From a virus (Duplodnaviria; Heunggongvirae; Uroviricota; Caudoviricetes), in the IMG/VR virus record IMGVR_UViG_2737471992_000010, positions 1-38,281 of that record: 38,281 bases of DNA. The stretch is one strand, 5' to 3'. The notes under the pieces were generated by a model. It searched no databases, had not been told where the DNA came from, and was given only the letters and a program-made list of their open reading frames with translations. A program made the translations under genes and the position numbers. Positions 1 through 33,040 of the stretch are shown here, piece by piece; position 1 is the stretch's first letter, and the number at the start of each line of letters is the position of its first letter.

Positions 1-516
1 ATGAAATTTAAAAAATGTCTTCTGCCTGTGGCAATGTTAGCGTCATTCACTCTGGCAGGATGCCAGTCAAATGCTGATGATCATGCCGCCGATGTTTATC
101 AAACCGATCAACTGAATACCAAACAAGAAACTAAAACCGTTAATATTATTTCCATTCTTCCCGCAAAAGTTGCCGTAGACAACGCCCAAAATAAACGGAA
201 CGCACAAGCCTTCGGCGCGCTTATTGGCGCTGTCGCTGGCGGTGTTATCGGCCACAACGTCGGGTCTGGCAGCAATTCCGGAACGACGGCAGGTGCAGTT
301 GGCGGCGGAGCTGTAGGCGCGGCAGCGGGTTCTATGGTGAATGATAAAACCTTAGTGGAAGGTGTTTCTTTAACATATAAGGAAGGCACCAAAGTGTATA
401 CCTCCACCCAAGTGGGTAAAGAGTGCCAGTTTACGACAGGTTTAGCCGTTGTTATTACCACGACGTATAACGAAACGCGTATTCAGCCAAATACCAAATG
501 TCCTGAAAAGAGCTAA
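1..516 (+). CDS. Lipoprotein with glycine-zipper region (SlyB/Pcp-like); probable host flank
   Basis: 171 aa ORF; N-terminal signal peptide ending in lipobox LAGC; Gly/Ala-rich stretch GALIGAVAGGVIGHNVG...GGGAVGAAAG typical of glycine-zipper outer membrane lipoproteins; TAA stop at 514-516. Confidence 0.6.
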   Translation: MKFKKCLLPVAMLASFTLAGCQSNADDHAADVYQTDQLNTKQETKTVNIISILPAKVAVDNAQNKRNAQAFGALIGAVAGGVIGHNVGSGSNSGTTAGAVGGGAVGAAAGSMVNDKTLVEGVSLTYKEGTKVYTSTQVGKECQFTTGLAVVITTTYNETRIQPNTKCPEKS

Positions 517-6121: not shown

Positions 6122-6211
6122 TTTACATCGCACTCCTCTTGTGCCATAGTAATCGGGCACTGGCAAAATCCAGTGCCGGGATTGGTCTCCCGGATTACTA
6201 AGTGGCGCATA

Positions 6212-6233
6212 CCACGCCAGACGTGGTTTTTTT
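6212..6233 (+). terminator. Weak terminator-like hairpin plus U-tract
   Basis: CCACG-CCAGA-CGTGG followed by seven T; lies downstream of GC-rich hairpins at 6156-6193. Confidence 0.35.
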
Positions 6234-6391
6234 ATGCGTATAGCACAGTCATGCCAGAATTATGGTGGGCTGAATGGGGGTCCGAAAGGACGCCGGTACC
6301 ACTTAGGCCGGTAAGACCAACTCCGTTCAGTTCACCACCATCTGATTGGTCTCAGCGGTGGTGATGTAATTCGCTAAGTGGAGACGCCATC

Positions 6392-7048
6392 ATGAACGCT
6401 CAACTCATCCCCGTATTCAACGGCACTATATCTAACGAAACAGCCCTACTTTGTAATGCCCGCGATCTGCACGCTTTTTTAGGTGTTAAAAAGGTGTTTG
6501 CAGCATGGATTACAAATCGCATATCAGAATACGAATTCATTGAAAATCAAGACTATATTTTGCTTTCCAATTTGGGAAAGCAAACATCTGGTAGAGGCGG
6601 CCACAACCGCAAAGAGTACCACCTCACCCTTGATACAGCCAAAGAGCTGGCGATGGTCGAGCGTAACGAAAAAGGTCGTCAGGTGCGACGCTACTTCATT
6701 GAATGCGAGAAACGTTTAAGACAACAAGAAACAAAAGTGGAGAAGGTCTTGTCAGGCTTCATGCCCGCCATTATGGAGGCGATCAAGCTGGAAGACAAAA
6801 AAGAATACAGCGCCCCACTGAAGCCCGGCTACCGCAGCCTGATTCATTCTCCGTCTGGTGTTCTCGGCCTGACGGAGAACTCACTGCTGATGAATCTGCT
6901 GAACAAGTTACAGGAAGACGGGCACGATGTATCGGGCGCGGCAGCGGAGCTGACCACCATGTTCTGCTACATCGTCGGTGTGAGCAAATGCCTGCGTGAT
7001 ATCCAGACCCACGCGGAGTACATCAACGACAAGGCAGGGTTCTTCTGA
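6392..7048 (+). CDS. Antirepressor (AntA-type N-terminal domain plus C-terminal domain)
   Basis: 218 aa; N-terminal region (VFNGT...[29 protein letters not shown]) resembles AntA/AntB antirepressor domains; GGAG RBS 10 nt upstream. Confidence 0.75.
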
Positions 7049-7147: not shown

Positions 7148-7312
7148 ATGACAGCGTTGAAAAATCGTACTCAGCACAATGAACAAGCAAAGCAATGCTG
7201 GGATGTCATTGGAAAAGTTATGCTTGGCCGCGCAAGCAAAGAGCGCGACAAGGATATGGTTTACCAGACAGGAACATCTTTCAGCGACTTCAAGGCGGCA
7301 TTTCGCTCCAAA
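7148..7312 (+). CDS. Small basic protein (55 aa), unknown function; not in the supplied ORF track
   Basis: ATG at 7148 preceded by AGGAGG at 6-nt spacing; translation MTALKNRTQHNEQAKQCWDVIGKVMLGRASKERDKDMVYQTGTSFSDFKAAFRSK; stop TAG at 7310-7312. Confidence 0.45.
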
Positions 7313-7335
7313 TAGAAGCACATCAGGAGTTTTCC

Positions 7336-7776
7336 TTGAAGTTTAACATTAGAATATCTAATAGTTTTCTACATGGGGAAAGCAACACCCCTTTCGCTGT
7401 AGACGGACCTTTCCTTACTGATGATGAAATAAAAATCATACAAAGTTTTTTAGAGGATGTTGCCAATGGAAGGGCGCTTGTTGGAAAAAACAAGCCCTCG
7501 TGGGTTGATGATAACCATGATAAAATTCCCGGCTCAGACAATTATGAGCAAGAGAATTATTGGCATTATCATTGTGGGCCAACATGGTATCCAAACACAT
7601 TTAAGAATTATACCATTAACTTAAATTTCAACCCTGGCGGAAGGCATTCTAATGAATGCATTCATTATGCAAAAAATGATAATGAAATTGTCATTGTTGG
7701 ATTTTCAAGAGAACACATACCTTTCCTTTCATCAGATGGAAACAACAATCCGCTTTTTAATGATGAAGAAGAATAG
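7336..7776 (+). CDS. AT-rich accessory gene of unknown function, about 146 aa, probable TTG start
   Basis: Long ORF with visibly lower GC than its surroundings; no in-frame ATG after 7195; AGGAG RBS (7325-7329) 6 nt before TTG 7336; acidic C-terminus NDEEE; followed by a strong terminator. Confidence 0.5.
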   Translation: MKFNIRISNSFLHGESNTPFAVDGPFLTDDEIKIIQSFLEDVANGRALVGKNKPSWVDDNHDKIPGSDNYEQENYWHYHCGPTWYPNTFKNYTINLNFNPGGRHSNECIHYAKNDNEIVIVGFSREHIPFLSSDGNNNPLFNDEEE

Positions 7777-8035: not shown

Positions 8036-8065
8036 AGGCCGCGAAAGCGGCCTGTGACATGTCAC
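8036..8065. terminator. Hairpin between convergent genes, possibly a bidirectional terminator
   Basis: AGGCCGC-GAAA-GCGGCCT stem-loop followed by palindrome GTGACATGTCAC and a T-rich run. Confidence 0.4.
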
Positions 8066-8358
8066 GTCCCTTTTCTGAATGATAGCCATTCGAAAAATGA
8101 TGACATTCCACCGCAGACAATAGCAAAGATGATCCCACCAAAGAAGAGAAGGCCAGCCTGCCACCACTCCCACCGCCATACATCCACAGCGCCAACCATA
8201 CCAACAATCGCTCCAACAAATGGAATATAGCTCACGATGAAAGCAATGGGGGCTGCAATTATCCAGTGCAATCCCCACCATGATTCAAGCCCAGCCATAA
8301 TTGCTGCCAACTGAAAAAGACCAACGACGATATAAACAATGAATCCTATAGCTTGCAT
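8062..8358 (-). CDS. Small integral membrane protein (98 aa), last gene of the virion operon
   Basis: AGGTGA RBS 6 nt upstream of ATG; three hydrophobic segments rich in Trp/Gly. Confidence 0.55.
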   Translation of the reverse strand: MQAIGFIVYIVVGLFQLAAIMAGLESWWGLHWIIAAPIAFIVSYIPFVGAIVGMVGAVDVWRWEWWQAGLLFFGGIIFAIVCGGMSSFFEWLSFRKGT

Positions 8359-8553: not shown

Positions 8554-11028
8554 TTATTGCGGAGTGACATCCTGAGGTCGCCACCAGTATGTCTGGTTAA
8601 ACTCTTTCTTCGAACGTTGCTCCATTTTACGCAAATAGCCTGGTGAAAAATACTCCTGCATCTGGTTAAAGATCATGTGATCAAGAGCTGCCTTCAAGTA
8701 CCAGAGATTCGCACCTGGCATCAGCCCTTTCCCAAGTTTCACCAGATCACCACCAGTCTGCTCGTTCTTCCCTTCCACAGCATTTAATGGTATGCCCTGA
8801 GCTATCTTCACTACGTCATCAACCAGGCCAGCTACCGGGCCAAGCATCGACGCCAGCGCGCCGCTTCCGTACCTAGTGTGATCTGACAATAAAAAGTCAC
8901 CGTAAAGGCCAAGACCACCACCTTTCAGTAGAGCACCAAGCCAAAATTTAGCAGCATCTTCTCCTGTCATCTCGCGAGGATTACGACCAGACGCAAGGTC
9001 GTTAAGTTGCTGCGACAAAGCGCCAAGAATGGTCGTACTGGCAATAAACGTCGCAATATATGCCGCACGCCCACCAGCAGACGGCATACCCATAGCGCGT
9101 GACCAGTGACGCATAACCACCGAGATAGGGAACGATTTAAACAGGAAAACACTTCTCGTTAATTCACCTTTCCATGTTCCACGCTGAATACCAGAACCGG
9201 TTATCAGTTGCTCACGTGCTCCCGGTGTAATAACAGCCATATCAACTTCTTCAGTTACGGCACCGAGCAGTTTACGCATTGCCTCAAATTTCACGCGTTC
9301 AGGCTCACCAAGATGTTTAACTGCTGAATCAGGGATACGCATAATGCTTTCCGGTGTCAGCATCGTATTATTACCGTTCCCCCAGTCCTCCTGTTGCGCC
9401 AGCTTCCATACGCTCCAGTCTGTGTCAGTAATCCCTTTGCTTTTCAGGATACGAAAATCAGAGTCATCGAGGCTACGAAGGTCTGGTGTCCGTGACACTA
9501 CTTCTCCCAGGCTTCCCATCATGGTTACGCCATAGGCGCGCTTGTGCGCATCTGACCATGCTGTAAGCCCACTGGCACGCATTACCGCCGTTGCTGCCCA
9601 ACGAGACACTGACGGCCCCATATTATCCATCGCCCAGCGGTTAACGCTGCCAAGTAGAGATTCCATTGCCAGACCAGCGCGGCGCGCCCGCGCAAGTTCT
9701 GTACGGTTCGTTGGGTCCATAGCTTCAAGCTGGTTGCGGAATAACTGGTTCATTGGAAGGTTGGTCACCTTCGCAGACAGATACATGGTTCCAAGATCAG
9801 AGAACGATGATAGCAACGCGGATCCGAGTCTGCTGGCAACCAGCCAGTTGCGGATATTGTCAGACCATCGCGCGATGTGCGGATTCGCTACAGGCTGTGT
9901 CTTTCCGGAAATAAAGTTGTACAGATTCTCTGTGTTGTTCGCCAGCCGCTCGACTTTACCGGTTTTACTCGGGTTAGCTGTTGCCGTTTCTGCCTTCACC
10001 TGATCAAGAAGAGAGCGGAAAACATGATCGGGGTTTGGGCCATATGTTTCCACCAGTGCAATATCTTTACTGATACCTTCCAGGTGACCGACCATGATTT
10101 CCCATAGAGAGCGATCGCCATAAAGTTGCTGATATTGCAGATATGAATCTGCATCTTTGAAATGTATCTGTCGTGATGCATTACCACGGTTAGCACGTGC
10201 GCCGGAAATTCGCATGCCGGTATCAGTAAGCTTATTCAGCCCACCAGTGGCGATTGTGTTATAAGCTTCTCCAAGAAATGCAGACAACTCGGCATCGTTC
10301 ATCAGTTGTCCATCGGCTCGGATATAATATTTGCGATCCAGCTTACCTATAACATCGCTAACCCACTTATCCTTTGATACCGCCCCAACCTTTTCCATAG
10401 AATGATGTTGAGGGATCCCCCAGTTTTCGAGATAGCCAATGTCCCCACCAGCATCATTAAACCGGCGGCGCAGTAGCTCTGTCACTTCTCTCCACGCCTT
10501 AGCACCTTTTCTTGCTTTAGCATTGCCAGTATTTTGCCCCCGCATTTCATATACCAGGTCACGTACGCCCGCTTCATCTTCAAACAGACCAAAAAAGCGA
10601 GGATCAACTGCTTCGAATGCCTCCTGCAATTGACTCAATGCATAATCACGGGTGGCTTTTGTTCTGGATTCAACAGAGAGGAAATTCGATTTACCGTCTG
10701 CATTAAAAGCAATAGTACGGTTAAGAGCGCCAAGTTTCCCATCAGCCCCTTGATAGCTATTGATAAATTTATCCAATCTCTGACGTGCGGCTATAGTGAG
10801 GGCCACACGACGTTTCTTTAATGCCGCTTCTCGCTGTAATTCTTCAGATGCCAATTGTGCTGCACGATATAGCCGCTCTGATTCGGAAAGTTGTCTCCAC
10901 GACATCGGGTCATCACGAGCAATAGAGCGCATATTTCGATAAATGCGGTCTTCAATGTTCTGTATTTCTCGCGCCGTTAACGTGCGCTGCGCCGCCTGCT
11001 GGACCGCTTGTATACATTCCTGTCTCAT
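8554..11028 (-). CDS. Large internal virion/ejection protein (T7 gp16-position)
   Basis: 824 aa ORF in an overlapping chain of virion genes downstream of the tail tubular genes. Confidence 0.65.
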   Translation of the reverse strand: MRQECIQAVQQAAQRTLTAREIQNIEDRIYRNMRSIARDDPMSWRQLSESERLYRAAQLASEELQREAALKKRRVALTIAARQRLDKFINSYQGADGKLGALNRTIAFNADGKSNFLSVESRTKATRDYALSQLQEAFEAVDPRFFGLFEDEAGVRDLVYEMRGQNTGNAKARKGAKAWREVTELLRRRFNDAGGDIGYLENWGIPQHHSMEKVGAVSKDKWVSDVIGKLDRKYYIRADGQLMNDAELSAFLGEAYNTIATGGLNKLTDTGMRISGARANRGNASRQIHFKDADSYLQYQQLYGDRSLWEIMVGHLEGISKDIALVETYGPNPDHVFRSLLDQVKAETATANPSKTGKVERLANNTENLYNFISGKTQPVANPHIARWSDNIRNWLVASRLGSALLSSFSDLGTMYLSAKVTNLPMNQLFRNQLEAMDPTNRTELARARRAGLAMESLLGSVNRWAMDNMGPSVSRWAATAVMRASGLTAWSDAHKRAYGVTMMGSLGEVVSRTPDLRSLDDSDFRILKSKGITDTDWSVWKLAQQEDWGNGNNTMLTPESIMRIPDSAVKHLGEPERVKFEAMRKLLGAVTEEVDMAVITPGAREQLITGSGIQRGTWKGELTRSVFLFKSFPISVVMRHWSRAMGMPSAGGRAAYIATFIASTTILGALSQQLNDLASGRNPREMTGEDAAKFWLGALLKGGGLGLYGDFLLSDHTRYGSGALASMLGPVAGLVDDVVKIAQGIPLNAVEGKNEQTGGDLVKLGKGLMPGANLWYLKAALDHMIFNQMQEYFSPGYLRKMEQRSKKEFNQTYWWRPQDVTPQ

Positions 11029-18826: not shown

Positions 18827-19431
18827 CAGGACAACCTCGCAATGGTAAACTCGTCAACCGGTGGCAGTGGTTCCTGTGATTCATTCTGGCTATGCGAGCC
18901 AGCACTAAGAATCACGCGATTGTACATATTGAGGGCAAACGTACCGAGGTCTGCATTCCCAGTCAGCGCCATGTTAATAGCTGCCGCAAGACGCCAGGCC
19001 AACGCCTCCATAAAAATGGCATCAAACATGTTCACATCTGTAACGCGAGATACATACTTGAGCCATGCCTGCGGCTGGTCTGTGTAGATCAACTTTCCTG
19101 TTCCGTTGGTGTCTGCACCAACTTCGTACTGAACGCGCATTGCTGCTGTTGGATTGCGTACACCAGGAAGCATAATTTCAGTAATGCGCAGACAATCGGA
19201 CGGGTACTGGTACGCATATTCCCAGTCAGGCGGTGGATTGCTCGTATCTGCAAGCGCCACGCGTTTGGTAGCAAAGTTCCAGTCAAAATCAGAAAGCACA
19301 GCATCACGGCAGGCCTCAAAGTGCAGCGAACATTCCCCCGCTTCCTTGCTGGCTTCCGTCAGGCTGTTAATACTGCGGCTGTTGCCAATATTGGACAGCG
19401 CACGATTGCAGATCTCTACTACAGAGGCCAT
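18826..19431 (-). CDS. Tail tubular protein A-like
   Basis: 201 aa; position and size match T7 gp11. Confidence 0.6.
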   Translation of the reverse strand: MASVVEICNRALSNIGNSRSINSLTEASKEAGECSLHFEACRDAVLSDFDWNFATKRVALADTSNPPPDWEYAYQYPSDCLRITEIMLPGVRNPTAAMRVQYEVGADTNGTGKLIYTDQPQAWLKYVSRVTDVNMFDAIFMEALAWRLAAAINMALTGNADLGTFALNMYNRVILSAGSHSQNESQEPLPPVDEFTIARLS

Positions 19432-19450
19432 AAGTTTCTATACTCCTGCA

Positions 19451-19470
19451 ATAAAGGGGCCGAAGCCCCT
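19451..19470 (-). terminator. Intra-operon hairpin terminator/attenuator between capsid and tail genes
   Basis: On the minus strand: AGGGGC-TTCG-GCCCCT stem-loop followed by TTTAT. Confidence 0.4.
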
Positions 19471-19487
19471 TGTCTGATTCGCGAGGC

Positions 19488-21323: not shown

Positions 21324-22025
21324 TTATTTGCCATAGAGCACTTCGGCCGCACTACGCTGGCCTTCATTACCACCGGTGACCATGCCATCTTCAGACATCG
21401 CCTTTCCGATTTTCACGAACGTTTTGACCAGATCAGGGTGATTACCCAGTCCGGTGGTGTTCAGATATTCTTTGAGCTCGGGTGTCCCGAACTGGTCAAG
21501 CGCACGCTGTGCGGCGCTAAGGTTAGAAATCAACTTGTCGCCACCAATTTCTTTGTCAGCTTTTACATCAGCAGCCCACTGCTCGGTTGTTTTCTGCCAG
21601 GCTTCTGCCTGGCGCTGCTGCACACCTGCCAGAATCTTCGGATAAGCATCAACCAGCTTTTGCGCTTGCTCGTTGGTCAGGTTTAGTTCTCGCGCCACCG
21701 GCTCGAATTCCTTCAACGCTTCTGTATCCAGCTCTACGCCTTCGGCAGCCTGAAACTCGTACTTTTCAGGCGCACCCTCTGGTTTATCGCCGTCCTTTTT
21801 TTCATCCTGCTTATCGTTTTCAGGCTTTTTGTCATCAGCAGGTTTATCGCCATCAGCAACAGGTTGTGGCTTATCACCTTCCTGTTGTGATGGATCACCA
21901 ACTGGAGCAGGGTTATCACCTGCAGGCGCTGACGGTTCTGACGCAGCCGGAGCTGCTCCACCATCGACTGGTTGCTCATTGCAAAGACGGCGATACAGCA
22001 AACGCTCAAATAAATTCATGATCAC
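21324..22025 (-). CDS. Scaffolding protein
   Basis: 233 aa, highly acidic with repeated P/D/K/E segments, between portal and capsid genes. Confidence 0.65.
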   Translation of the reverse strand: MIMNLFERLLYRRLCNEQPVDGGAAPAASEPSAPAGDNPAPVGDPSQQEGDKPQPVADGDKPADDKKPENDKQDEKKDGDKPEGAPEKYEFQAAEGVELDTEALKEFEPVARELNLTNEQAQKLVDAYPKILAGVQQRQAEAWQKTTEQWAADVKADKEIGGDKLISNLSAAQRALDQFGTPELKEYLNTTGLGNHPDLVKTFVKIGKAMSEDGMVTGGNEGQRSAAEVLYGK

Positions 22026-22318
22026 TCCTGTTCACTGGCCTCTTTGGCCATCTTCAAATACTGTTCAGGGCAATGCGCCATAACGCGCTGAAACAGTTCC
22101 AGCGCCAGATTGCGTTGCCCCTCATTAAATGCCATTGCCATAGCGTCCATCGGTGAGATAGCGGAAAACACACGGCCTTTCTCCAGCACCGACCAGACAA
22201 CGCGACGCCCCTGTTCACTGCTCATGACAAAGCGAATGTCATCAATTTCACGCTGTGCCATGTCACGTTGCTTACGGGCGTTTTCTTCTTTCAGTTGATC
22301 GTCTTCGTAATCTGTCAT
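22022..22318 (-). CDS. Small hypothetical head-module protein
   Basis: 98 aa; overlapping start/stop with the portal and scaffold genes. Confidence 0.45.
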   Translation of the reverse strand: MTDYEDDQLKEENARKQRDMAQREIDDIRFVMSSEQGRRVVWSVLEKGRVFSAISPMDAMAMAFNEGQRNLALELFQRVMAHCPEQYLKMAKEASEQE

Positions 22319-24215: not shown

Positions 24216-24304
24216 ATCAATGACTCCGTACGCAATTAAATTATTACCAATTTAACCACATATGATTTATTTATCGTAGACAGTTGACATTTAACGCGCG
24301 AATT

Positions 24305-24321
24305 ATTACCTTTCAGGTAAC
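24305..24321. promoter_or_regulatory. 17-bp palindromic operator-like site ATTACC-TTTCA-GGTAAC next to a consensus -35
   Basis: Inverted repeat with TTGACA at 24284-24289 just upstream; lies between the divergent virion operon (minus) and the tRNA/accessory unit (plus). Confidence 0.55.
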
Positions 24322-24642: not shown

Positions 24643-24719
24643 GTGGCATTAGCTCAGTTGGACAGAGCAACCGCCTTCTAAGCGGTTGGTCGCAGGTTCG
24701 AATCCTGCATGCCACGCCA
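24643..24719 (+). tRNA. tRNA-Arg, anticodon UCU (reads AGA)
   Basis: Hand-folded cloverleaf: 7-bp acceptor stem GTGGCAT/ATGCCAC, D arm GCTC...GAGC, anticodon stem ACCGC/GCGGT with loop CTTCTAA, T arm GCAGG-TTCGAAT-CCTGC, discriminator G and encoded CCA. Confidence 0.9.
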
Positions 24720-24917: not shown

Positions 24918-25274
24918 ATGAACGACCAGCAAATCGAAAAAGAAATCGTTGAGAAAGGCAAAACCGCTCCGCGAGTTACGCCTCAATATATCGAAAGCAT
25001 CATTCTTGAAGAGCATTTCTTTACTGCTTATGACGGCATTCGTGCTGCCAATATGGGCGTTGGCGATTCATGGACAGCGCATAAATCTACAGACCTCCTG
25101 ACTTTCTGCGTATTGGTACTGAAGAATGGCTTCACCGTCACCGGAGAGAGTGCCTGTGCAAGTCCGGAAAATTTTGATGCAGAAATTGGTCGGAAGATTG
25201 CCCGACAGAATGCTGTAAACAAAATCTGGATGCTTGAAGGTTACTTGCTGAAGCAGAAGTTAAGCGAGCAATAA
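24918..25274 (+). CDS. Accessory phage protein, possibly N4 gp49 / Sf6 gp66 family
   Basis: 118 aa with AAGGTGAG RBS; family assignment is from memory of similar sequences and is tentative. Confidence 0.4.
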   Translation: MNDQQIEKEIVEKGKTAPRVTPQYIESIILEEHFFTAYDGIRAANMGVGDSWTAHKSTDLLTFCVLVLKNGFTVTGESACASPENFDAEIGRKIARQNAVNKIWMLEGYLLKQKLSEQ

Positions 25275-25294
25275 CACCGTGACATATCACAAAC

Positions 25295-25321
25295 AGCCAG
25301 CCTATGAGCTGGCTTTGTTTT
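25295..25321 (+). terminator. Rho-independent terminator between convergent genes
   Basis: AGCCAGC-CTATGA-GCTGGCT stem-loop followed by TTTGTTTT. Confidence 0.6.
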
Positions 25322-27433: not shown

Positions 27434-27551
27434 AACCACCGTGGTAATAGTTACCGTTGTGGTAATAGTACCATGCAAAATAAAGCCGCCATAGTTGGCG
27501 GCAGTATTCAAAACCCGTCAAATTCATCATGCATAATCTACTCGTGACATG

Positions 27552-27890
27552 TCACACTATTAATTTCGTTTCATGCCAGCCTTTAGTCACCCAGCATTGT
27601 GAGTCACCATTACACGGACATGAATTAACTGGAACTCTCTCGCCGCACTTACCGCAACGTGTTCTGCTGATCGATTTTATACGCCCGTGCACGCGTGCAT
27701 CATCCTGGCGGATCAGTAACGCTATATACTCACCAAATTCGTAAGGCGCACGCCCGGGGCGACGCGTGGCACAGTTACGCTCCAGCATTTCAATTTCCTG
27801 AGCATCAAGCACAATCTCCAGCTTACGCACACCAGATGCAGCTTGTCTGGCTCTCTGAGCGGCTTTGCGCTCTGCTGCTGATTTAGCCAT
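27552..27890 (-). CDS. Basic protein with C-terminal Cys-rich zinc-ribbon-like motif, at the Q/late-regulator position
   Basis: 112 aa; Arg/Lys-rich N-terminus, CGKCGERVPVNSCPCNGDSQC near the C-terminus; immediately upstream of terminase. Confidence 0.4.
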   Translation of the reverse strand: MAKSAAERKAAQRARQAASGVRKLEIVLDAQEIEMLERNCATRRPGRAPYEFGEYIALLIRQDDARVHGRIKSISRTRCGKCGERVPVNSCPCNGDSQCWVTKGWHETKLIV

Positions 27891-31442: not shown

Positions 31443-32243
31443 TTACTTGATAAATCCTGCCGCCTTTCCCCGCCTGTATTCCTCCATCAGCCACTGCGCC
31501 GGTGTTATTCCCCCCAGGGTAGCGGCGTTAGGCATACACCCGAAACTTCGCCCTGGTGGATGGTAAACGTCTCTCCCTGTGTCCGGAGGCGTACTCATGG
31601 GTTCTGGCTTTGCCTGTATGCTGATCACCGGATCGGGTATCTGCTGTCCGGAAGCCACCTTTTTCGCCCAATCATCAAGCAGCCTGCGCGCGTGTTTCTC
31701 AACCTCAATCTCGCTAAGCTGGCGCTGATACATTGCACGGCGGGTATCACATACGACCCAGTACATAACCGGATGCCGCCACGGGAATCTTTCGGGACCA
31801 CCAGGATATAAACTTTTTTCCTTGCTGTACCGGTGAAACTCCGCCATCACATCGTCAATGGTGACGCCAAGAACCATCTTGCTGTCTTTACACCACTTGA
31901 TAAATTGCCCTGGCGACGGCCAGAACGGAGATTCACTGGCGCGGGCGTGGCGCATACCAGCAGAAACCTGTTCACGGGTTCGGATCCCCCCTTCGGCAAA
32001 CGCAGCAATCCACTGCTGTTTTGCAGCAACTTCCTGCTCTGGCGTCTTCAGGTTGGTTACCACTGCCGCCGGAAACAGTTGTTTCAACTGTTTGAAAAGG
32101 GCATCAACAAGCCTCTCTGCTGACATGTTCACTACGTTGTCATTGTTGGTGTACTGATGCTCATAACCTGACATGCGAGAAAGGGCTTCTCCGTCACGGT
32201 TTTGTATCGCGGTAAAAACGTTGTTCACAAGAAATCCTCCCAT
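31443..32243 (-). CDS. Replication protein P-like (helicase loader)
   Basis: Segment GMRHARASESPFWPSPGQFIKWC matches lambda P GMRVARRQNRPFLPSPGQFVAWC; start may be the internal ATG at 32174. Confidence 0.75.
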   Translation of the reverse strand: MGGFLVNNVFTAIQNRDGEALSRMSGYEHQYTNNDNVVNMSAERLVDALFKQLKQLFPAAVVTNLKTPEQEVAAKQQWIAAFAEGGIRTREQVSAGMRHARASESPFWPSPGQFIKWCKDSKMVLGVTIDDVMAEFHRYSKEKSLYPGGPERFPWRHPVMYWVVCDTRRAMYQRQLSEIEVEKHARRLLDDWAKKVASGQQIPDPVISIQAKPEPMSTPPDTGRDVYHPPGRSFGCMPNAATLGGITPAQWLMEEYRRGKAAGFIK

Positions 32244-33040
32244 GCTTCAGGGCTGTTCCAGTGCGGAACGTTGTTATCAGGTAATGTTGATTGCTTCTGT
32301 CTGCTAATCTGCAGCCGCCTTGCCAGCTTCTGCTCCCACTGTGCCTGATGGTATGCCCTACCCTCAGCCATCCAGTAAATTCTGAACTCTGCAAGTTCCT
32401 GTGCCGTTGGCAGACTGTCCAGGTAGATCCCCTGCAATGAGCTTTTCCGAAGAAAGTCATCTGATGGCTGCCATTGTTCATGCATGACAAATTTGCCTAA
32501 TTGCCCTGGCCCACCAGGAGGAACAAAGTTATTCATCACGGCGTTGTTTGCGCCGGGGTCATGATGCACAGAATCCCCGTTTTTTGTCCTGCTCTCCCTC
32601 TCTTGGTTAAATGACTGGTTATATGACTGGTTCTGGATCCCGTTTTTGGGATCATTCAACATCCCGTTTTTGGGATCATTCAACATCCCGTTTTTGGGTA
32701 TATTCCCGTTTTCGGGAACATTACCGTTTTCGGGTTCATTACCCCCTTCCCGGTTGCCTTTAATGTTCCCGTTTTTGGTTATATTAAGAGAGAAAACCCG
32801 CACTCTTTTCGTCGCTCCCTTTCTCTCTCCGGTATCTGAAATAAGCCCCATTTTCATGAGCGATATAAGCCCGGCCTGCACGGTTTTTTTATTCAGGCAA
32901 GTGTCTTTAACGAGGCGTTCTATGCTGGGGTAGCAGAGGTTATATTCATCGGCTCTGTCAGCCATCGAGAGCAGTATGAGCTTTAATGACGAGCTACCTG
33001 GATCTGTCTCCCAGGCCCAATCTGTTGCATGTCTGCTCAT
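32225..33040 (-). CDS. Replication initiator O-like protein with ori iterons inside the gene
   Basis: 271 aa; N-terminal HTH-like region, central NG/PENG/PKNG peptide repeats encoded by DNA iterons; immediately upstream of the P-like gene as in lambda O-P. Confidence 0.7.
   Translation of the reverse strand: MSRHATDWAWETDPGSSSLKLILLSMADRADEYNLCYPSIERLVKDTCLNKKTVQAGLISLMKMGLISDTGERKGATKRVRVFSLNITKNGNIKGNREGGNEPENGNVPENGNIPKNGMLNDPKNGMLNDPKNGIQNQSYNQSFNQERESRTKNGDSVHHDPGANNAVMNNFVPPGGPGQLGKFVMHEQWQPSDDFLRKSSLQGIYLDSLPTAQELAEFRIYWMAEGRAYHQAQWEQKLARRLQISRQKQSTLPDNNVPHWNSPEAWEDFL
32637..32781. repeat. Origin iterons: 5-6 copies of ATCCCGTTTTTGGGAT-like inverted repeat at about 24-bp spacing, followed by an AT-rich stretch
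   Basis: Perfect copies at 32637-32652 and 32661-32676; degenerate copies at 32685-32700, 32703-32718, 32721-32736 and about 32766-32781; AT-rich atattaagagagaaaa follows. Confidence 0.75.

Follow-up and report, generated by a model that had tools for sequence, protein, structure and literature searches.

A basic phage protein with a palindrome at the stop codon of its gene: a putative protein-plus-operator module at operon boundaries

The gene and its neighbourhood

The stretch of DNA analysed here, 38,281 nucleotides long and called the window throughout, comes from a phiV10/epsilon15-type temperate podophage of the genus Uetakevirus. Phages phiv142-3, PAS61 and ZX5 are approximately 97% identical to it, and its late genes lie on the minus strand. 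The gene of interest (Table 1) begins with an ATG at 27890-27888, behind an AGGA Shine-Dalgarno sequence, and overlaps the end of the preceding NinX-family gene by 8 nt. Because of this overlap, we assign it as the last cistron of an accessory early operon that also carries a methyltransferase gene, an Ead/Ea22-like gene and a DUF551 gene. The genes downstream encode the small and large terminase subunits, and the likely start of the small subunit (ATG 27433/27430) is 118 nt away, which places the gene in the position that the late antiterminator gene Q holds in phage lambda. Thus, two elements of the original prediction hold: the ORF is a real gene for a 112-aa basic protein with a C-terminal Cys cluster, to which we add its minus-strand orientation, and it occupies the slot of lambda Q.

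The protein has a pI of 9.54 (21 Lys and Arg residues versus 13 Asp and Glu) and carries Cys residues at positions 40, 79, 82, 91, 93 and 99. It is a homologue of phiV10 p55, epsilon15 gp49, N15 gp46 and ZF40 gp22, and its relatives form 721 clusters at 90% identity or 152 clusters at 50% identity, encountered in hosts from Enterobacterales, Vibrio and Aeromonas. The HMM search that had been proposed as a check on a late-regulator role yields a match to PHROG 536 (‘transcriptional regulator’, E 2.5e-54), in keeping with a regulator, and no Pfam match to the Q or Ogr families. Indeed, Pfam returned no family at all for this protein, and PADLOC gave no match. Neighbouring genes vary between phages, such that no gene is constant beside the PHROG 536 homologues.

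Table 1. Coordinates of features in the window and in the 112-aa protein
Feature	Position	Strand	Remarks
112-aa protein gene	27552..27890	-	stop TGA 27554-27552
Site 1 palindrome GTGACATGTCAC	27544..27555	.	holds TGA stop 27554-27552; proposed operator
Spacer, site 1 to terminator (41 nt)	27503..27543	-	deletion remnant of a 70-aa ORF; mini-ORF MHDEFDGF(stop)
Intrinsic terminator GCCGCCAACTATGGCGGC + TTTATTTT	27477..27502	-	ends accessory early operon
Extended -10-like TGgTACTAT (27473-27465) over repressor operator TTACCACAACGGTAA (27465-27451)	27451..27473	-	just upstream of terminase small subunit start
Site 2 palindrome GTGACATATCAC	25279..25290	.	one mismatch in window
One-mismatch copy GTGCCATGTCAC	22255..22266	.	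inside ORF 22022-22318
Site 3 palindrome, exact GTGACATGTCAC	8054..8065	.	holds TGA stop (8064-8062) of 98-aa membrane-protein ORF
Ten TTACC-N5-GGTAA operators	5726, 6106, 7121, 24306, 27451, 31329, 31391, 33722, 34434, 34496
Basic helix	residues 5-19		112-aa protein; AlphaFold model
RHH core	residues ~22-64		112-aa protein; AlphaFold model
Predicted Cys4 zinc knuckle, then short helix	C79, C82, C91/93, C99		112-aa protein; model and alignment

In an alignment of 58 diverse family members, residues R13, C79, C82 and C99 are invariant, a fourth Cys is found in the 91/93 loop, and R8, E54, L59, P87 and G95 are nearly invariant. The resulting family motif reads ERKxxQRxR ... PYxxxEY ... CxxCGxxLP...G...C. 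An AlphaFold model (pLDDT 92) arranges the chain as a helix (residues 5-19), an extended segment, two helices (30-42 and 52-74), a Cys knuckle and a final helix (100-107), and it contains the strand-helix-helix fold of the RHH (CopG/Arc/MetJ) superfamily. A fold match to MatP was also found for the model; MatP has a basic helix before its RHH strand. As modelled, the product is a small DNA-binding protein with a predicted zinc knuckle. The zinc ribbon named in the original prediction was itself a prediction, and AlphaFold gives a short Cys knuckle followed by a helix.

Remote similarity searches return faint signals. The RHH models of Pfam and NCBIfam have no above-threshold match to the family; below threshold, RHH_5, RHH_1 and RepB-RCR_reg of Pfam each appear in one or two of the 58 members, and the NCBIfam model YbfE matches weakly (E 0.05). 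A Foldseek search of PDB and BFVD with the model recovered only one RHH protein and a fragment of the 112-aa protein itself. The C-terminal half of the protein is weakly similar to YbiI and TraR in a profile search of PDB sequences (E 0.016-0.024), and hhalign pairs the family with TraR at a probability of 45%, or 63% when a TraR alignment is used. TraR/DksA proteins bind in the secondary channel of RNA polymerase and are common in plasmids and phages. The family matches neither PF01258 (TraR/DksA) nor the TraR/DksA fold, and its model lacks a free helix or coiled coil for the secondary channel. Three points lead us to treat the TraR similarity as an unproven lead: the Cys spacing differs, the helix that aligns with TraR (residues 52-74) corresponds to helix B in the RHH core, and the similarity is not backed by a fold match.

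A palindrome at the stop codon

Most members of this gene family share a palindrome, GTGAC-NN-GTCAC, that overlaps or abuts their stop codon. A set of 35 diverse loci (28-99% identity) has it at -3 to +15 nt from the stop in 27 cases, which span podo-, myo-, sipho- and P2-like phages and include N15, ZF40, AH07, a P2-like Yersinia phage, Xenorhabdus and Pantoea prophages, and marine contigs. Among close relatives the position is -3 in 75 of 80, and in 29 loci from prophages or viral contigs (50-79% identity or lower) it is mostly -3 to +11. At approximately 28-33% identity, members carry the palindrome at -3, +15 or about +200, or else carry two copies in tandem at +2.1 kb. The stop codon falls inside the motif for AH07 gp31, N15 gp46 and gp14 of the P2-like Yersinia phage, and for gp22 of the myovirus ZF40 the motif is at the stop or a few bases from it.

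These sites are far more numerous than chance would provide. With at most one mismatch, four copies are present in the window versus 0.13 expected, and none of 100 shuffles reaches four. Each of seven complete gene-bearing genomes (7/7) holds one to three exact sites with a 2-bp spacer, against an expectation of 0.03-0.05, and Pseudomonas phage Ab31 and Acinetobacter phage Ab9, which have related terminase and virion genes and lack the gene, hold zero palindromes. The half-sites are invariant and the spacer is always 2 bp; the 13-bp matS sequence GTGACRNYGTCAC was sought in nine complete genomes and not found. The central dinucleotide differs even among near-identical proteins, and its identity shows no correlation with the strand residues. 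Since ten specified bases are invariant and the central two vary freely, the palindrome bears the signature of a dyad that is read by protein.

From this co-inheritance, the dyad symmetry of the motif and the predicted fold, we infer that the palindrome is the cognate DNA site of the 112-aa protein. The family-wide linkage to GTGAC-NN-GTCAC likewise suggests that the protein reads this dyad-symmetric DNA as a dimer. Perhaps another factor binds the palindrome instead, or the palindrome could be a recombination junction that travels with the gene. As far as we can tell, the pairing of gene and site has not been described before: searches of the available literature for variants of the palindrome and for functions of N15 gp46 or epsilon15 gp49 gave nothing relevant, and the paper on phage ZX5 addresses only its repressor, antirepressor and integrase.

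Two other explanations for the motif were discarded. A packaging (pac) site is contradicted by the occurrence of the gene-site pair with unrelated terminases in N15, P2-like phages and ZF40. An RNA hairpin was set aside from the sequence, which permits a stem of at most 4 bp with a 4-nt loop.

Some copies of the palindrome lie elsewhere. A scan of loci with a distant family member yielded three loci. At L127, which holds a distant member of the family, the stop codon of the gene is without a palindrome and two GTGACGCGTCAC palindromes 23 bp apart (10475-10509) are located between convergent Bro-N and HTH genes. ZF40 (L010; 5125 and 7622) and a Yersinia artesiana prophage (L120; 3238 and 5420) have in common additional exact palindromes that are intragenic, one in the 3' part of a cII-like gene and one in an early-left gene, which places such sites in both early operons.

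Operon ends and late-gene control

All three principal sites in the window are arranged in the order gene stop, palindrome, intrinsic terminator. Site 2 begins 4 nt past the stop of a plus-strand gene of the N4 gp49/Sf6 gp66 family and ends 4 nt before a bidirectional terminator (25295-25314) that also ends the terminase operon; its sequence is exact in phiV10, epsilon15 and SPN1S. Site 3 lies at the end of the structural operon, whose last gene is the 98-aa membrane-protein ORF (8062-8358), and is followed directly by a terminator (8053-8029). Epsilon15 and SPN1S carry the exact 12-mer at three syntenic places with differing flanks, namely after the gp49 homologue, beside the terminator of the terminase genes and where the structural operon ends. 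In phiV10 the second and third places are likewise exact, and the linear record ends within the first copy. The fourth copy in the window (22255-22266), which is present in phiV10 and absent from epsilon15, is doubtful as a functional site.

This arrangement extends to other phages in part. Terminator-like hairpins occur within 80 nt of 45 of 91 site contexts, many of them mutually related, compared to 20 of 600 random positions, and about half of the independent contexts have no terminator adjoining the palindrome. For N15 gp47, for xis in Pantoea prophages and for a 70-aa ORF that stands between palindrome and terminator in approximately 22% of close relatives (e.g. L021), the next gene begins only 9-20 nt past the site, and therefore polymerase must pass the site at least some of the time.

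Promoter elements show no comparable regularity: across relatives, neither a -10 nor any other promoter element recurs at a constant spacing from the palindrome. A candidate promoter at site 1 (GTGACA-18-CATGAT) was rejected; the match is not conserved and falls within the remnant of the deleted 70-aa ORF. A pair of ACTATTACCAC repeats upstream of the terminase gene, considered as direct-repeat sites, proved to be part of the repressor operator TTACC-N5-GGTAA.

The flanks of the sites are mosaic. The gene at the end of the structural operon differs between the window (the 98-aa ORF) and phiV10 (46-aa p21, 19345-19485), and since the two phages are identical from the palindrome onward, a mosaic junction falls exactly at the site 3 palindrome. 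Morons are accessory genes inserted into phage genomes, and the palindrome of two Citrobacter-group prophages is followed by the promoter, with a LexA box, of an SOS-regulated moron. TTGACT or TTGACG with a LexA box (CTGT-N8-ACAG) is found after the palindrome in prophages of Pseudocitrobacter (L095, 10336-10400), Citrobacter (L096, 10336-10400) and Erwinia (L100, 10541-10610), where this promoter drives an SOS-regulated downstream gene.

It had been argued that, with no phage RNA polymerase available, some activator must be needed for late transcription and that the 112-aa protein was a candidate for this role. The premise is upheld: a polymerase domain was not found in the five ORFs of 600-862 aa in the window, and none is annotated in phiV10 or epsilon15. 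Repressor operators ahead of the terminase, portal and tailspike operons speak against the need for an activator. In the epsilon15 record, binding sites for the repressor are annotated in front of the terminase, portal and tail-fibre operons, and in the window TTACC-N5-GGTAA stands at the corresponding places (27451, 24306 and 5726) as well as at early promoters, such that at least one operator precedes most lytic transcription units. This distribution points to a flat scheme of regulation, with most operons held directly by the prophage repressor. The element at 27451-27473 is likely a repressor-controlled promoter of the terminase operon, as its extended -10-like sequence would indicate, and on the strength of these operators we propose that late promoters fire without a phage activator, since there would be no call for repressing the late operons directly unless host polymerase were able to use their promoters unaided.

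What survives of the late-regulator idea is the location, because the gene indeed sits at the early/late junction with an apparent operator exactly there. The palindrome is absent upstream of the portal, tailspike and lysis operons in the window, where sites occupy the 3' ends of transcription units. Furthermore, homologues are found in phages that have other late regulators, namely Q-like proteins in ZF40 (gp25), N15 (gp40, annotated as late transcription activator) and AH07 (gp52), and, in the P2-like Yersinia phage vB_YenM_56.17, a small regulator gene at the ogr position. In AH07 and in Pantoea prophages, the homologue resides in a leftward operon beside xis/int and far from late genes. 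Conversely, Ab31 (L129) carries a Q-like antiterminator (42587-42961) and a lambdoid nin region in place of the 112-aa gene; because Ab31 drives its related virion module with a Q-like protein, this module does not demand the 112-aa protein. Taken together, the 112-aa protein looks like a local regulator of operon ends rather than a master late-gene switch.

Several other loci in the window were noted. Gathering-level Rfam matches to the Hfq-binding sRNA isrK (6157-6233, plus strand) and to C4 antisense RNA (6258-6342, plus strand) closely precede two plus-strand ORFs, 6392-7048 and 7195-7776, of which the second is Bro-N/antirepressor-like judging from its synteny with phiV10 p23. This region looks like an antirepressor module of the P1/P7 c4-icd-ant type, flanked by repressor operators (6106 and 7121). 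A tRNA-Arg(TCT) gene (24643-24719, plus strand) and the N4 gp49/Sf6 gp66-family gene (24918-25274, plus strand) lie between the terminase and portal operons, antisense to the late genes, and a promoter-like site (24277-24306, plus strand) overlaps the repressor operator at 24306. Finally, two tandem TGGGATCATTCAACATCCCGTTTTTGGG sequences 24 bp apart (32647-32690, plus strand) within the replication-initiator gene (32225-33040) are possibly origin iterons.

Possible mechanisms and known systems

We propose, at a little under an even chance, that the gene and its stop-codon palindrome form a portable protein-plus-operator module at operon boundaries that controls RNA polymerase traffic. The protein would most likely dimerise through its RHH core and bind GTGAC-NN-GTCAC, with the basic N-terminal helix (R8, K9, Q12, R13, R15) probably reading the GTGAC half-sites, the central two bases left unread and the zinc knuckle serving as an accessory domain. 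Because the site overlaps the stop codon of the gene, new protein would be made beside its own target and would act first on the genome that encodes it, at the point where its operon ends. Such an arrangement would favour action in cis and hold gene and site together through mosaic recombination. The three places that it would occupy, each between a gene end and an intrinsic terminator, are the junctions of the accessory early operon with the terminase operon, of the terminase operon with the opposite-strand moron, and of the structural operon with the antirepressor module. Binding there would block or modify polymerase running off the end of a unit. At site 1, it would also provide feedback on the operon that encodes the protein and determine the amount of early transcription that continues into the genes beyond. 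Late promoters, which bear prophage repressor operators, would not be switched on by the 112-aa protein. The class of fold, the linkage of gene and site, the places of the sites and the coexistence with Q or Ogr are what the analysis shows, whereas binding to the palindrome and any effect on polymerase are inferences.

Two sub-mechanisms may be envisaged. The bound protein could be a roadblock or insulator, including feedback on its own transcript, or it could be a factor that loads onto passing polymerase and alters termination. The constant order of site then terminator and the weak TraR-like signal favour polymerase loading. In contrast, a roadblock is favoured by site 2, where read-through would be antisense to the terminase genes, and by the contexts without a terminator. 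A simple roadblock upstream of a terminator would be redundant, and the order fits a polymerase-modifying factor at least as well. Counting against control of operon boundaries in general are these terminator-less contexts and the intragenic extra sites in ZF40 and the Yersinia prophage.

Among the alternatives, a Q-like late regulator deserves the closest comparison, and we judge it rather unlikely. Such a protein would bind the palindrome past its own gene and either activate a promoter there or load RNA polymerase for read-through at 27502-27477 and at later terminators, into the terminase and virion genes. The layout is indeed that of lambda Q-qut-tR', with a regulator gene, a site within a few nt, a terminator 24-41 nt on and then late genes; read in the direction of the gene before it, the site comes ahead of the terminator in every case, as the loading of an antiterminator requires. 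Uetakeviruses also have no recognisable Q, several distant relatives have the gene as their final early gene ahead of lysis or packaging genes, and the weak profile similarity of the C-terminal half is to a zinc finger of RNA-polymerase-binding proteins (TraR/DksA). However, the coexistence with Q-like proteins and with an Ogr-position gene is difficult to reconcile with this role, as is the finding that the neighbours of other homologues are xis/int, NinB or an SOS-regulated moron and not late genes. Moreover, no promoter recurs at a constant distance from the site, the Pfam Q families are unmatched, the late operons bear their own repressor operators, and read-through at site 2 would yield antisense RNA to the terminase genes.

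Alternatively, the pair might be a phage counterpart of MatP/matS that bridges, positions or shields phage DNA, for example from a MukBEF-type SMC complex, and does not act on transcription directly. All hosts encountered here (Enterobacterales, Vibrio and Aeromonas) fall within the clade in which MatP and MukBEF occur. Each genome has few sites, as in centromere-like systems, and one is directly past the gene, as with parS and sopC. The half-sites are identical to those of matS, GTGAC[AG]N[TC]GTCAC (PMC3603311). Nevertheless, the spacing is always N2 and never N3, and homology to MatP is undetected (hhalign probability 0.6%, no MatP at E<=10 in the profile search of PDB sequences, no Pfam match). 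The 112-aa protein has no coiled-coil tetramerisation or ZapB-binding region, and this explanation, quite unlikely in our estimate, leaves the link to gene ends and terminators unaccounted for. A still less probable account holds that the palindromes are recombination junctions of mosaic modules, or their relics, and that the protein regulates something else, perhaps host genes. Similarity between relatives does break exactly at the palindrome, with upstream genes differing and downstream sequence identical between the window and phiV10 at site 3; flanks downstream of site 1 vary among relatives, and the gene family has no conserved neighbour. Yet a relic would decay, and the ten specified bases are invariant down to 28% protein identity. 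Furthermore, sites are absent from genomes that lack the gene, and a dimeric RHH protein is exactly what would read such a palindrome.

There is also a bolder possibility, unlikely though it is, that the pair constitutes a new portable control element, either a termination factor whose zinc finger derives from TraR/DksA or a MatP/matS-like system of phages. In the former case, a DNA-tethered factor would capture polymerase leaving the operon and alter its termination, and would represent a site-specific control of elongation and termination unrelated to Q, N or RfaH. In the latter, a spacer one base shorter would avoid host MatP, and the system would organise or shield phage DNA in MukBEF hosts.

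If the protein does bind the palindrome, a widespread phage gene annotated as ‘hypothetical’ or ‘transcriptional regulator’ gains a concrete target, which is a 12-bp palindrome over its own stop codon. Because the pairing holds across unrelated phage types, it should help to annotate operators and the limits of operons in numerous prophages of enterobacteria and vibrios. In the epsilon15/phiV10 group, which includes O157 reporter phages, our observations argue for direct repression of the late genes by the prophage repressor and against their being switched on by a Q-like factor. That the half-sites are identical to those of matS also raises the question of whether phage regulators are linked to the terminus-organising system of the host.

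Among known systems, the Ogr/Delta late activators of P2 and P4 resemble the 112-aa protein, a small phage protein with predicted zinc binding that was likewise proposed for late-gene control, but there is no homology and the Ogr_Delta domain of Pfam is unmatched. TraR/DksA C4 zinc-finger proteins are weakly similar over a helix and CxxCGxx(L/I)P...G...C, although their CxxC-x17-CxxC spacing is not that of the 112-aa protein. The arrangement of lambda Q, qut and tR' is closely paralleled, in that a regulator gene immediately ahead of the late genes is followed closely by its DNA site and then by a terminator; the 112-aa protein is likewise zinc-containing by prediction, and the layout would favour cis action. 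In contrast to lambda Q, there is no homology, the window has the terminator and late genes of a lambda-type Q site and no conserved promoter or pause signal, further sites lie at other operon ends, and the coexistence with Q in ZF40, N15 and AH07 indicates that the homologues are not the sole late regulators.

The lac repressor offers an analogy for an operator at the coding 3' end of the regulator's own gene, with possible feedback. LacI bound over the 3' end of lacI reportedly acts as a roadblock that gives a truncated, tmRNA-tagged product. The likeness is one of analogy only.

In fold (residues ~20-65), the 112-aa protein resembles RHH repressors such as P22 Arc and Mnt, CopG, MetJ and the ParD/MazE-type antitoxins, which are also small, phage- or plasmid-borne, and expected to read a short dyad as a dimer via a two-stranded sheet. 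Unlike these proteins, it has a basic helix before the strand and a predicted Cys4 zinc knuckle after the core; its operator would lie at its own 3' end, with the stop codon inside, rather than at an upstream promoter, and its gene has neither a toxin, as antitoxin genes do, nor any other fixed partner. E. coli MatP differs from the family in having a 3-bp instead of a 2-bp spacer and a four-helix bundle/coiled coil, and there is no sequence homology between this host protein and the phage-borne family with sites at gene ends. Even so, both are predicted or known RHH proteins with a basic helix before the strand, and in both cases identical GTGAC/GTCAC half-sites form a few dispersed sites in the same host clade.
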